DNA of 53,218 nucleotides from a virus (lineage: Duplodnaviria > Caudoviricetes), in IMG/VR virus record IMGVR_UViG_3300037150_000044, positions 1 to 53,218 of that record. One strand, written 5' to 3'. Under the pieces are notes generated by a model that saw only the letters and a program-made list of their open reading frames with translations, ran no database searches and was not told where the DNA came from. The position numbers were made by a program, and so were the translations under genes. Numbering within the stretch: position 1 is the first letter of the stretch; each line of letters begins with the position of its first letter. This document shows, one piece after another, positions 46,527-53,218 of this stretch.

Positions 46527-48849
46527 AGTCTGACGGCTCCGTACGAACCACGCTAAGCGTAGAAGACTACGGTAAAGGTAGTGAATTGAAGACGCTCAAT
46601 GCTGAGTTGGCTTTGGTTCTTGGCTCTGCTACAAAAGCTGAGCAGTTCATCATCGACCGCCAGTGGAATCTGCTCTGGAGAGATGCAGATTTACTTTATC
46701 AGTCCCCACGCCCGATGAGCGTGTACGAAAATACCTAAACATACATGGGTCACTCATTAGTAATAATGATGTGAGAACCTTCTCTGATTGACTTGGAAGC
46801 TGAAATGGCTAACAGGGGGCAAGCGAAAGCAGCCTGAACGACTAAGTGAGAGGGCATCCTTCGGGATGGTGCGATAGTCTGACCTGCATGGAATGAAAAC
46901 ATGCAGAGATAAGCAGAAATGACTTATCTCGGTGTAAGCCGATAACAATAAGTGATGTATTAGAACCGAACGTTCAGCGATTCACTGTAGCAAAGGTTGT
47001 GAATGCAGTTGTGCCGCAGCTATATAAGGGATTGTTTTATGCAGACCCTCCTATGGTTCTGCGGCCTCGTGCTGGCACAAGCCAGAAGACAACCGATGCA
47101 AAGACGATTCTCTTCTCCGTTCTTTTGAACGAGTGCAAATTCAAGACTGAAACGAAGTGGGGTCTTGAGCAGATGGCGTGCCTCGGCACCGGCATATGGA
47201 AGTGGGGCATTCGTTACGAAAAGGTAATGACGCAGAAGCGTACCAGTACGGCGGTGAAGTTGTCCGCTGGAGTGGGCGATCAGCAAGACACGCAGACTAT
47301 ACCTACAACCGATCCTCCGAAGGTGACAAAGACTTACCGCACAGTAGCCCGCCCGTTCTTCGAGTCGCGCCCTATCAACAAGGTATGGGTCGCTCCTAAT
47401 TGCGAGTTCGGTGACATTCGCATGTCCGACTTCGTTATCGACGTTCGGTACATGGACTTCTACGCGGTAAACGACATTCGCAAAGCACTAGAAGAGATAC
47501 GCGAACAAGACCCAGAGCACAAAGACCTCGAAGGTTGGAACCTGCCGCGCACTGAAGACGAGCTTCGCAAGTGGTGGTTCGCTCCTATTGGAGATACGGC
47601 CCCCATCTTGGCGAGTGATCAAGCCACGTACATGCGTGGTGCTGTTCACCACTCGGAAGACCAGAACGTTGAAGTCTCGCCGGACAAGCTCTTCAAGAAG
47701 TTGGAAGTGTTGGAGTATTGGGACAAGGGCCGCAAGGTCACTGTTATCGACCGCAAGAAGGTCATCTTCTCCGGGGACAACGAGTTCGGAGTAATTCCGT
47801 TCCTGTCCGCTAACTGGTGGAACCGATCCAAAGCATTTTACGGCATGGGCCTTGGCCTTATTGTCGGACAGAACCAGCGAGTTGATCAGGGCACAATCAA
47901 CGCAATTCTCAAGATTCTGTCCTTTGGTGTCAACCCGATTTATTTGCGCAAGCGTGATACAAACGCTCCGACGCAGATGATCCGTACTGGTCTGGGTAAA
48001 ATCCTGACCGTTGATACAGAAGTCGATAAGTCGTACAAACTGCTTGAGACACCGAAGACCCCGCCTGACATCTGGGCAGCATTAGCCGAATCTGAGAAAG
48101 CGACCGAGAGTTCTTCGGGGGCTGATGCGCAGCTTGTACAAGGCTCGTCCGCAGGCCCACGATCTTCGATGGGACGCACAGCAGGCGGAGCTAATCTACT
48201 TGCAGGCGCAAGCGCGACTCGTCTTGACGGGCCGTTAGACAACTTCATCGAACAGGTGTTCGCACCGTTCTTGTACATCCTTGATGATCTGATCTTGAAC
48301 TACATATCGGATGCTGAGATTGTCGCCATCCTTGGCGATGAGATGGGCAACGATTACGAGGTCGATCTTGAGGCGTTCCACGCAGCTAAGATTGAGTACG
48401 AGGTTCTTGCCGGTGCAGCTTTGGCCGCCAAGCGCACTATGGCTCAGTCGATGACTTTGCTCACACAGATTTTAGAGAACCCGCAGATCACTGATCAACT
48501 CGCAGATGTAAACGAGGAGTACATTGATTGGAAGGTCATCTTGAATATGTGGCTTGAGTCGAGTGAGTGGAAGAACAAGAACGACATCATCAAGCCGATG
48601 ACAGCGCAAATGAAACAGAAACGTGCAGCCGCATCACAAGCCGCACAGCAGCAGTCTAAGGCAGCAGTAGCCCAACAGTCCACGCAGCAGAAGTTCCAAC
48701 AGAAGCAGACGCTTGAAGATCAGGCCACGAACAACCGAATCAAACGAGACATCGTGAGAGAGGCGTTCAAGGACAACGCAACAAGCGAGGCAACTGAAGG
48801 CACTGCTAACCCATTGGGTCTGGAGGGTTCGGAGCCGACTGTAGAGTAA
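46502..48849 (+). CDS. portal protein, spliced: join(46502..46736,46955..48849), about 709 aa
   Basis: Removing the intron gives ...VYENT-Y-VLEPNVQRFTVAKVVNAVVP...; GTGIWKWG and FYGMGLG motifs; located after terL. Confidence 0.88.
46737..46954 (+). ncRNA. group I intron, ORF-less, 218 nt, in portal gene
   Basis: 5' exon ACCU pairs with GGGU (U:G); IGS AUACAU pairs with 3' exon AUGUAU (P10); P3 CUCU/AGAG; P7 GACUA/UAGUC; terminal G. Confidence 0.92.
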
Positions 48850-51005: not shown

Positions 51006-53176
51006 ATGGGTTATACTCCTGCGGGAAATAATCAAGGCAATCTGCCTCAGTCCACCGTCAAGTTCTACGATAAATAATCTTGTCGTAGTCAAACCTTCTC
51101 TAATTGACTCGAAACCTGAAACGGCAACGAGGCGGAAGCGAAAGCACCGTGAGAGACTAAACGAGAGGGCACCCGCAATGACGGGTGATGCAATAGTCCG
51201 ACCATACGGGAAGACTAAAAAACCGTATGAGGTACGCAGAAATGCCGTACCCGCGATCTGAGTCGCGCAACAAGTTGAAGAAATTTCGTGAAAACCTGAA
51301 GGCTCAGACTCCCTTCGTCGCTTGCTCCGAGCGTCTCGATCTTCCGACTAAGAGCGGAAATCAATATGAGATGTTTATGTATGTACCGTTTGCTGCCAAC
51401 ACTGCGCAGACAACGGAAGGTACTGTGGGCAGTTCCATCAGCATCAGTGTTCTTACGACCACTGCTACAATTGGCGAGTACGCTTTTGTCTAATTGGCGT
51501 TCTCGTAAAACAAAATCTTGCTATATCGGTGAAAACCTGATAGAATGTCCTTATGGGAAAATATCAGACAATACCGAGGAAAGACTCTTGAAAGAACACA
51601 CTAAGGCATATATGGCCGGGATGATGGATGCAGAGGGTACGTTTACTATAACGACCTGTACGCATAAATCTCTTGGACACCAACTTTACGATCCTTGTAT
51701 ACGAATGACCAGCACCTGCCGTCCTGTAGTGGATTGGGCAGTAGAGAACTTCGGTGGAACGATATACGGTCACAAACTGACTGGAACATCTAAACTGGAG
51801 CGCTGGGACTGGTCAACGGATTCGTATAGCCATTCTAGTGCGTTCCTTTCTTTAGTATCACCTTACCTTCTCATCAAACGCGATGAGGCAAAAGTACTTG
51901 AGGAGTTTTACAGCCTGTATCGAAAACAGGTTCCAACTCAACGAGCGTACCTTTGTGAAAAGCTAAAGGCTCTAAAGAAGAGAGAATCCCTAACGACTAA
52001 TACGCAAGAACTTCCTAATAAAGACAATTTGATAAACGCTTATTTTGCTGGATTTTTTGATGGAGAAGGAACCGTTCGCTTCACCAAGAACAATGGATAT
52101 GATGATGTAAGGATATCCCTTGGCAATACAGCAAAAAGTAACCTAGAACTTCTGAAGACATTGTACGGCGGTCACATTTACACACTGGGCGGAGAAAGTA
52201 GACCCCAAGTGTGCAGGCAACCTATGTGGCAGTGGCAATTGGATAAGAAGTCAGATCAGGTATCATTCCTGCTCAAAGTTATCCCTTATCTAAAAATAAA
52301 AAGAGATAGGGCAAAAGAGGCGTTAGTTTTTATTAGAAAAGTAAGATAGAGTCTGACCTCGTAGGAAACTATGAGAGCGGTCCCGCAGTGATGCGGTGAT
52401 CCTATAACAAGCATAAGGATTATGCAAACTTCTCCTCGCTCTCGCTTGCAACAGCAATCGACAGCACCGTTGAAAACGTGGCGCGTGAGCTTGCTTACCG
52501 TCTTGGTGAGTCCCTGTCTGGCCTTGTCCGTGCAACTGCTGACGGCGCATCCAGCGTTGACTCCAGCGTGCTGACACAGCTTGGCGCGGTTTCGACTTCG
52601 AGTTTCACGACTCTTAGCCTGAACCAGATTCGTAACAGCGTTCAGTCCCTCGCTGGTCGTTCGGTTCGTCCGTTCGATGAAGCATCCAAGAGCTTCTGTG
52701 GTGTACTTCATCCGTTCTCACTTGGTGACGTTCTTTCGGACGTGAGCAACAACAGTCCTATCGACATTCTGAAGCACACTCCGGTGGGCCAGATGAAGAT
52801 GGAAGACCTTGTTTCCACCGATCTGACAGAAATGATCGAGCTTCCGGGTTCTGGTGTTCGCTTCTTCCAGACCAATCAGGTTACGACCACTGCTAACTAC
52901 AAGGGTGTGTCCGGCCTGACTGCGCTGCGTACCTACATCTTCGGGCGTGATGGCATTTACAGCATCAAGCTGGGAGCACAGGGCGACACAGACTTCGGTG
53001 ACGGAGAGTGGAGCAACATCAAGTGCAACATCGTGCAGAACGCTGAGCCGACTGTTGCCGATCCTGAAGGACTTATCCCCGGATACCATTTGTCTGTCCG
53101 GTTTATCTAGCCCCAGCTTTATTGGGACGAGCTATCGTGTTCACTTCACGACTAGCCTTGGGCCAGATACCACAAT
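51006..53176 (+). CDS. major capsid protein (N4-gp56-like), spliced: join(51006..51071,51278..51484,52418..53084,53125..~53176,...), incomplete
   Basis: Joined translation: MGYTPAG...VKFYD-KKFRENLKA...TIGEYA-DYANFSSLSLATAID...DPEGLIPG-W-TSYRVHFTTSLGPDTTI. Confidence 0.85.
51072..51277 (+). ncRNA. group I intron 1 in capsid gene, ORF-less, 206 nt
   Basis: P1 CUACGAU/GUCGUAG; P10 UCUU/AAGA; P7 GACUA/UAGUC; terminal G; in-frame join. Confidence 0.92.
51485..52417 (+). mobile_element. group I intron 2 in capsid gene, 933 nt, carrying a homing endonuclease
   Basis: P1 GAGUACGCU/GGCGUUCUC; P3 UCUUGC/GCAAGA; P7 GACU/AGUC; terminal G; in-frame join. Confidence 0.9.
51588..52349 (+). CDS. intron-encoded double-motif LAGLIDADG homing endonuclease (start approximate, TTG)
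   Basis: AYMAGMMDAEG and AYFAGFFDGEG, each followed by a PYL.IKR motif. Confidence 0.92.
   Translation: MKEHTKAYMAGMMDAEGTFTITTCTHKSLGHQLYDPCIRMTSTCRPVVDWAVENFGGTIYGHKLTGTSKLERWDWSTDSYSHSSAFLSLVSPYLLIKRDEAKVLEEFYSLYRKQVPTQRAYLCEKLKALKKRESLTTNTQELPNKDNLINAYFAGFFDGEGTVRFTKNNGYDDVRISLGNTAKSNLELLKTLYGGHIYTLGGESRPQVCRQPMWQWQLDKKSDQVSFLLKVIPYLKIKRDRAKEALVFIRKVR
53085..53124 (+). other. 40-nt intron-like insertion in capsid gene
   Basis: Begins after a U, can form P1 CCGGAU/GUCCGG, ends in G; removal restores GGA-TGG-ACG (G-W-T). Confidence 0.65.
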
Positions 53177-53218
53177 TAACTCATTTGTTTTCAGTGACTT
53201 GAAACGAAGACGGGTTGT
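53177..53218 (+). ncRNA. probable start of a further group I intron (truncated by window)
   Basis: Exon ACAAU(U) is complementary to GGUUGU at the window end; shift to AT-rich sequence that does not look like capsid coding. Confidence 0.45.

Follow-up and report, generated by a model that had tools for sequence, protein, structure and literature searches.

The 40-nt insert at positions 53085–53124 of the virus record IMGVR_UViG_3300037150_000044 interrupts a phage major capsid gene and is, judged from its sequence, a core-less group I mini-intron (hereafter mini), internally deleted and one of a family of such elements in related capsid genes. The window analysed here is the whole viral contig (53,218 bases, linear, with a completeness estimate of 56%), and the capsid gene occupies its last 2.2 kb. 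Exact excision of the insert from the mRNA, joining U53084 to G53125, has to take place for the capsid protein to be made, and the most likely catalyst is the full-size group I intron that begins just downstream. Both the excision and the identity of the catalyst are what we infer from comparative sequence patterns. These patterns would probably describe a non-autonomous form of group I intron, in which remnants of 34–98 nt use the core of the full intron that follows them closely in the transcript and appear to keep substrate elements only, namely P1, P10, the omega G and a P9.0 tail. The splice sites of the mini follow group I grammar but the defining core is absent; the mini is a derivative of group I introns and not a full member.

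The interrupted gene has a sole match in the phage collection, gp6 of Tunturiibacter phage Tunturi_3 (PP885686), a podovirus whose host is a soil member of the Acidobacteriota. The gp6 gene is an uninterrupted open reading frame (ORF) annotated as ‘major head protein’; its product has 343 amino acids and is 90.5% identical to the window capsid over query residues 1–221. In Tunturi_3 it follows the terminase, the portal and three small genes, and the capsid identity used here is based on the Tunturi_3 annotation together with this terminase–portal–capsid gene order. Pfam gave no match for window exon 3 or for gp6, PHROG gave none for window exon 3 and a PDB sequence search gave none for gp6; an Atlas language-model look-alike, the N4-gp56 family major capsid (0.86), is a lead only.

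The capsid frame of the window ends in ...DPEGLIPGYHLSVRFI at a TAG stop codon within the insert, after which the +1 frame resumes with GTSYRVHFTTSLGPDTTI; the corresponding C-terminal reading of gp6 is ...LIPGWTSYRVHFTTSLGPDTTIRIREIDAASAIS followed by a stop. Alignment of the window with Tunturi_3 DNA showed four insertions in the capsid gene (introns 1 and 2, the mini, and a further intron at the contig end; Table 1), all of them preceded by U and all ending in G wherever the 3′ end is visible. The mini is a clean 40-nt insertion, all exon bases being present. Once it is removed, T53084 and the GG of 53125–53126 together form a Trp codon, and the product reads PG-W-TSYRVHF. The first-pass annotation, made from the letters of the window alone, had proposed that the insert interrupts the capsid gene and that its deletion restores the PG-W reading, and had expected GWTSY in capsid homologs. 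This is borne out by the Tunturi_3 alignment and by the homologs, which encode the predicted spliced product: among 78 related viral loci with the motif VADPEGLIPG, 72 run directly into WT and the other 6 are interrupted exactly there. The Trp at this position, which corresponds to nt 940 of the capsid coding sequence (CDS; site 940), is invariant in 18/18 aligned homologs and is present in 72/72 uninterrupted loci. Among the 37 mechanically called Tunturi_3 ORFs with a match in the window, only the portal, the capsid and a shadow ORF opposite the capsid were split.

The pairing predicted for the mini is that of a group I splice-site region. Exon CCGGAU pairs with GUCCGG of the insert in P1, with a U.G wobble at the cut, and the abutting UUUGUCU pairs with exon GGACGAG (53125–53131) in a P10 of 7 pairs; the final base of the insert is G. 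Each of these features had been claimed at first pass, the P10 as a P10-like pairing of GUCC or GUCU with exon GGAC. A contiguous guide of 13 pairs was reached in 113 of 200,000 shuffles of the insert, and the best score of the guide against 159 other T-ending positions in exon 3 was 8. The claim that the insert is group I-like without a core also held, in that positions 53085–53124 gave no Rfam match at E ≤ 1, no match to covariance model R1, which was built from the local intron family, and no P3–P9 core. Following the guide, 23 nt remain in the window's mini; the only other hairpin predicted, CCCAG/UUGGG, straddles the 3′ splice site and is unconserved in other minis at site 940.

The insert is real DNA and not an assembly collapse, because the independent DNA run X2 carries the same 40 nt: a 205-nt contig of depth 16.2 spans 53054–53218 without gaps, insert included, and differs from the window by a single T>C at 53091, in the P1 loop. 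Assembly collapse, which had been flagged for checking, was rejected on this ground and on that of the eight different insert sizes found at site 940 across assemblies. Run X2 also has a joint that skips 53085–53124; it comes from a co-occurring relative and was rejected as evidence of splicing. Exact-match scans of viral contigs with a 23-mer of the mini, and with a 31-mer of the window's last bases for a continuation of the contig, each gave 0 matches.

The mini belongs to a family. Loci aligned to the Tunturi_3 coding sequence numbered 162 (82 viral and 80 metagenome, 34 of the latter duplicating viral ones), and with the window these comprise 115 distinct capsid genes at <99.5% identity. 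Insertions were scored as minis on the basis of a 5′ exon ending in U, a contiguous P1 + P10 guide and a terminal G, and 42 were validated, sized 34–98 nt, in 32/115 genes and at 12 sites. In all 42 the guide G pairs with the exon U as a U.G wobble and so starts a P1 of 6–13 bp, the bases directly 5′ of the guide G pair without gaps with the first 4–8 bases of the 3′ exon as P10, and the last base is G. Nine small insertions (L009, L011, L022, L032, L052, L092, L098, L109 and L148 site 271) failed through a weak P1 or a gene-start or contig-edge position, and were rejected as alignment or contig-edge artefacts.

At site 940 the minis measure 36, 37, 39, 40, 45, 62, 97 and 98 nt, and the shorter ones resemble nested deletions of the longer. 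The suggestion that relatives might carry a full intron at this site stood in part: longer versions exist (45, 62, 97 and 98 nt), but none of those in the relatives is full-size, the longest insert being 98 nt. Both helices covary across site-940 minis. P1 occurs as CCGGAU/GUCCGG (window), CCGGUU/GACCGG, CUGGUU/GACCAG and CCUGGAU/GUCCAGG, and P10 as GGACGAG/UUUGUCU (window), GGACGAG/UUCGUCU and GGACUU/AAGUCU; an exon change of GGA to GGU goes with guide GUCCGG to GACCGG, CCC to CCU with CCGG to CCAGG, and ACG AGC to ACU UCU with UUUGUCU to AAGUCU. Moreover, at sites 66, 156, 161 and 900 the minis share their guide region with full-size introns at the same sites in other genes, which indicates that minis are internally deleted introns. 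The mean length of P10 is 6.5 bp in minis and 3.2 bp in full introns, and a longer P10 is what a 3′ splice site without a core of its own would need.

Comparison of the coding sequence beyond the minis indicates that the genes remain functional. The ratio of non-synonymous to synonymous change (dN/dS) downstream of N-terminal minis is 0.06–0.12 over ∼290 codons, at a proportion of synonymous differences (pS) near 0.6, and downstream of the C-terminal sets (sites 900, 906 and 921) it is 0.00–0.08; at a pS of 0.40–0.72, dN/dS beyond shared minis is 0.02–0.12. The site-940 comparisons are mostly too saturated or too short (15–29 codons) for a dN/dS ratio; the window's micro-exon 4, compared with those of L059, L060 and L151, has 0 non-synonymous and 3–7 synonymous differences over 15 codons. 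By these sequence comparisons, purifying selection acts strongly on the codons that follow shared minis. Each of five mini-bearing records checked contained one capsid match. Read-through and frameshift were rejected, since all 42 minis contain an in-frame stop and only 14/42 have a length divisible by 3.

If the insert were not removed, the capsid allele would be defective and would rely on complementation by co-infecting relatives, or else the insert would be an assembly artefact. This is very improbable: the contig is indeed a 56%-complete metagenomic fragment and run X2 also contains a relative without the insert, but the insert recurs in an independent run and assembly, a mini at site 940 is present in thirteen distinct genes, purifying selection acts downstream of minis and guide covariation has been kept. 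A ribosome that hops the 40 nt, as in the translational bypass of T4 gene 60, is extremely unlikely and was rejected. The short gap, the essential phage gene, the hairpin at the take-off Gly codon, the GGG just ahead of the resumed frame at site 940 and, in L059, L060 and L151, the stop directly after the Gly codon would all suit such a hop; however, matching take-off and landing triplets occur in 0/42 minis, and their first two letters mismatch at 11/12 sites. In the window the pair would be GGA and GGG, landing there would drop the invariant Trp, and the codon after GGA is UAC, with the stop 8 codons later.

Excision by a group I core is the reading that fits the minis best, and the candidate cores are the full introns of the same genes. 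Of 30 small full introns, 26 align well, and the four left out are an artefact, a member of a different family and two near-duplicates. Compensatory changes in 31 of the 38 predicted pairs show these full introns to be genuine group I ribozymes. The bulged P7 (GAGAGACU with AGUCC, or GAACGACU with AGUCU) also covaries, as judged by eye. Mini-bearing genes without a full intron number 0/32, whereas 25/83 mini-less genes have one (Fisher 3.5e-13, uncorrected for phylogeny). A full intron lies 20–215 nt downstream of 41/42 minis, and in the remaining case the sequence stops at the contig end. Among distinct pairings of mini site with helper site, the helper (the full intron) is downstream in 16/16, including pairings whose mini falls within the final 130 nt of the gene. 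In the window, the probable intron predicted at first pass about 50 nt downstream begins 52 nt from the mini, at the same site and with the same opening as the introns of relatives.

Two further explanations invoke a catalyst other than the downstream intron. Excision could be performed in trans by any free excised phage intron, such as capsid introns 1 and 2 or the portal intron, and not by the downstream one specifically. The window has at least three other full introns, and engineered group I ribozymes excise segments from separate RNAs by trans-excision-splicing, according to the portions available of PMC2532722. This explanation is nonetheless unlikely, as it leaves unaccounted for both the downstream position (41/42 minis and 16/16 pairings) and the match between the mini tail and the J7/9 of the downstream intron described below. 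Alternatively, the mini might splice itself without a core, aided by exon sequences, as has been claimed for a 67-nt fungal rDNA intron; the accessible text of PMC3160393 has introns of 63–75 nt with P1, P7 and P10, one of which splices in vitro. This is quite improbable here: inserts of 34–40 nt leave 17–23 nt after the guide, a stretch too short for a G-binding helix and without conserved bases, and autonomous minis should sometimes stand alone, which among the 32 mini-bearing genes they never do.

The tail of the mini suggests a more specific connection to the downstream intron. Full introns show a P9.0-type contact in 65/70 cases, their penultimate base pairing with the second base of J7/9. 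When mini tails were compared with the J7/9 of the downstream intron over 20 distinct combinations, 18 of these paired at position −1, 15 at position −2 and 13 at both, counts that permuted helpers matched in 324, 31 and 9 of 20,000 trials, respectively. The pairs include rare ones, namely CAG tails with GUUC, GUG with GACC or GAUC, and AUG with GAUC; in two of the AUG cases the helper's own tail is UUG. For L158, a filter skipped an 872-nt intron and the next intron was used in this comparison. A check by eye for a conserved tether between the 3′ half of the mini and the 5′ region of the helper showed nothing conserved.

The earlier suggestion that the mini depends on a neighbouring ribozyme is upheld indirectly, by the absence of mini-bearing genes without a full intron, by the downstream position and by the complementarity of tails to J7/9; spliced RNA was not among the evidence found. 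Several points weigh against catalysis by the downstream intron. The contigs from RNA runs (X17 and X20) are only exon-like and come from an intron-less relative, their matching ending at 53084. The window's own helper is visible for 42 nt only, its core and J7/9 lying beyond the contig end, and the local fold of the mini is not unusually stable (z = −0.62). Two mini tails, those of L147 site 93 (ACG) and L145 site 260 (UAG), do not pair with the J7/9 of the next intron, and the nearest downstream intron of L158 (872 nt, site 949, J7/9 AUC) would not pair either. Moreover, the association and tail statistics count related sequences as independent. The tail–J7/9 match could have been inherited, if the ancestor of the mini and the helper were sister copies, and the co-occurrence of minis and full introns may reflect the descent of minis from introns in intron-rich lineages. 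Finally, to our knowledge no natural group I core splices a separate intron.

The proposed pathway is as follows. The mini would have shed the whole P3–P9 core and retained the splice-site marks, these being the exon U with its U.G, the P1 + P10 guide, a short tail and the terminal G. Its chemistry would be ordinary group I transesterification by a borrowed core, most likely donated by the full intron from 53177, which lies on the mini's own transcript. The helper core would dock the pre-formed P1 hairpin of the mini, with guanosine attacking the 5′ splice site, and would then bind the terminal G of the mini, aided by a P9.0-type contact of the mini tail with J7/9 of the helper. Next it would ligate the exons, which the long P10 holds in alignment, and the helper would then splice itself out.

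A protein route has also been considered, in which an endonuclease cuts both junctions of the exon–guide helix and a phage RNA ligase seals the guide-splinted nick. P1 and P10 do place the exon ends side by side, and Tunturi_3 (L083/L084) encodes two RNA ligases, an RNA 2′-phosphotransferase, a kinase and a phosphoesterase, which resemble an RNA-repair set. The route is decidedly improbable, however: the U.G wobble and the terminal G (42/42) are group I signatures that a ligase would not need, no candidate endonuclease was identified, and Tunturi_3 has these enzymes yet has no introns in its capsid or portal genes. Nothing was found in support of the earlier idea that the phage's own RNA ligases remove the insert.

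The full introns themselves fall into two structurally distinct families in these capsid genes (L003–L164), at more than 20 sites that cluster at CDS nt 53–282 and 794–1018. Family A has the core ...CUCUGAUUGACUUGG... and measures 195–229 nt in these genes; family B has the core ...CUUGCUAUAUCGGUGG... and often carries an endonuclease ORF. One capsid gene, that of L145, contains six full introns and two minis. Small ORF-less introns occur at nt 956, 981, 992 and 1018 (L040–L160), and a mini lies 35–118 nt upstream of nearly every one of them, the one possible exception being L063, which has an insertion of 241 nt near nt 995. It may be that mini, micro-exon and intron travel together as a unit. 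The features of the window are collected in Table 1.

Table 1. Capsid gene parts and group I elements of the window, in window coordinates.
Feature	Position	Strand	Basis
Capsid (major head) gene exon 1, ATG at 51006	51006..51071	+	tblastn and DNA alignment to Tunturi_3 gp6
Intron 1, full-size group I, family A, 206 nt, ORF-less	51072..51277	+	insertion relative to Tunturi_3
Capsid exon 2	51278..51484	+	alignment to Tunturi_3
Intron 2, full-size group I, family B, 933 nt, with homing-endonuclease ORF	51485..52417	+	insertion relative to Tunturi_3
Capsid exon 3; last six bases CCGGAU (53079–53084) are the 5′ strand of the mini's P1	52418..53084	+	alignment to Tunturi_3
Predicted core-less mini-intron, 40 nt	53085..53124	+	insertion relative to Tunturi_3, pairing
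Mini, P10 guide	53089..53095	+	
Mini, P1 guide	53096..53101	+	
Mini, in-frame TAG	53108..53110	+	
Mini, terminal G	53124	+	
Micro-exon 4, 52 nt; finishes the Trp codon, then TSYRVHFTTSLGPDTT, then two bases of an Ile codon; initial 7 bases complementary to the P10 guide of the mini	53125..53176	+	
5′ end of further intron, capsid CDS nt 992, runs off the contig end	53177..53218	+	read by eye
Family A group I intron in portal gene, ∼218 nt, approximate ends	46735..46952	+	insertion relative to Tunturi_3 portal gene

Intron 1 is preceded by an exon U, ends in G, has the P1 CUACGAU/GUCGUAG and scores 181.7 bits with model R1. Summed contig depth rises about five-fold over 51056–51211, within the region of intron 1, in runs X2 and X3 (69.6 against ∼11–18), which fits the presence of many co-occurring copies or relatives of the family of intron 1 in those samples. 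Intron 2 has a weak Rfam Intron_gpI match at 52177–52375 (23.8 bits, under the gathering score of 50), and its ORF (51498–52346) has Pfam matches to LAGLIDADG_3 and LAGLIDADG_1 barely over their cut-offs. The best PHROG match of this ORF, phrog_5046 (E 3e-38), is labelled ‘HNH endonuclease’, which disagrees with the LAGLIDADG motif family. A DNA contig of X2 and X3 joins 52004 to 52343 with 21 different letters between; this variant of intron 2 lacks ∼338 nt of its endonuclease ORF and may represent a homing-endonuclease gene in decay.

The visible part of the intron at 53177 is too short for model R1. Its site and its opening TAAC are shared with the 198–225 nt family A introns of L059, L060, L141 and L151, and its final five visible bases, GUUGU, begin a P1 guide against exon CCACAAU. 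The portal intron, which scores 177.6 bits with model R1 at 46751–46953, is another source of family A ribozyme in the window phage; the portal gene has this one full intron only, with no mini upstream of it.

Self-splicing group I introns occur in the phage genes td, nrdB and sunY of T4 and in Twort and SPO1. Like these, the mini has a U.G in P1, a P1 + P10 guide, a terminal G and an early in-frame stop, and sits in a conserved phage gene; unlike them it has no P3–P9 core and no G-binding P7, its P10 is longer and its length of 40 nt is about a fifth of that of the set's smallest full intron (195 nt). The 50-nt coding gap bypassed in T4 gene 60 is likewise a short untranslated gap in an essential phage gene in a homing-endonuclease-rich setting, but gene 60 has matched take-off and landing codons and a stop after take-off, and the window's mini has neither. 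In the degenerate group II and group III introns of organelles, and in the spliceosome, catalytic parts have been lost and the catalysts come from elsewhere. The degenerate introns thus depend on an external catalyst as the minis are proposed to do, whereas intron class and chemistry differ. We know of no group I counterpart of such core-less introns with shared catalysts, and a literature search likewise found none.

A full-text literature search, with supplementary files outside its reach, gave no description of phage mini-introns. In keyword look-ups of the text available, the word ‘intron’ was absent from the Tunturi phage paper, and a 2025 paper on Bastillevirinae introns contained none of six size- or trans-related terms. 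The statement in the first-pass annotation that no natural example has been described needs correction, because degenerate group I introns of 56–81 nt have been described in nuclear SSU rDNA of Phialophora and lichen fungi (Harris and Rogers, 2011; PMC3160393). As given in the accessible parts of that paper, they have P1, P10 and a putative P7, form one monophyletic set and include one reported to be self-splicing. The phage minis are similarly drastically reduced, retain P1 + P10 and occupy an essential gene. The differences, on the same excerpts, are that the fungal introns lie in eukaryotic rRNA, have the putative P7 and self-splicing, and are not tied to a neighbour, whereas the minis lie in the protein-coding major head gene of a lineage of Acidobacteriota phages and go down to 34 nt.

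Engineered group I ribozymes remove a short internal RNA segment and ligate its flanks by trans-excision-splicing (Dotson, Johnson and Testa, 2008; PMC2532722), which, as far as the portions of that work at hand describe it, shows that the chemistry proposed for mini excision is feasible. There the reaction is a laboratory one and the ribozyme carries the guide, whereas the mini, the segment to be excised, brings its own guide, and a natural neighbouring intron would supply the core. A review (PMC3984707) notes the view that stops in frame close to the 5′ splice site assist the folding of introns in translated genes, and the in-frame stops of all 42 minis fit such a role. In the sources as available, then, degenerate group I introns are known from fungi and have not been described in phages, at this small size, or linked to a helper.

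If the minis are spliced by a borrowed core, phage annotation pipelines will call the mini-bearing genes, 32 of the 115 distinct capsid genes in this lineage, frameshifted or broken. If the proposed mechanism is true, it might also explain some of the unexplained ‘frameshifts’ in intron-rich phage genes, and the ‘unknown forms of gene fragmentation’ mentioned in the accessible text of a paper on crAss-like phages (PMC7886860) may merit re-examination with the mini grammar. The strict polarity, with the helper downstream, also gives a way to test how ribozyme action is ordered during transcription. If true, one ribozyme would serve two introns, and this would be the first natural group I core to splice a separate intron, a reaction seen until now only with engineered ribozymes. 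It would also be a group I equivalent of the route that leads from group II introns to introns that lack a core and share their catalysts. A group I intron would then be able to shed its catalyst and persist as a dependent element of 34–40 nt, so that the decay of such an intron need not end in its loss or in the death of the gene.

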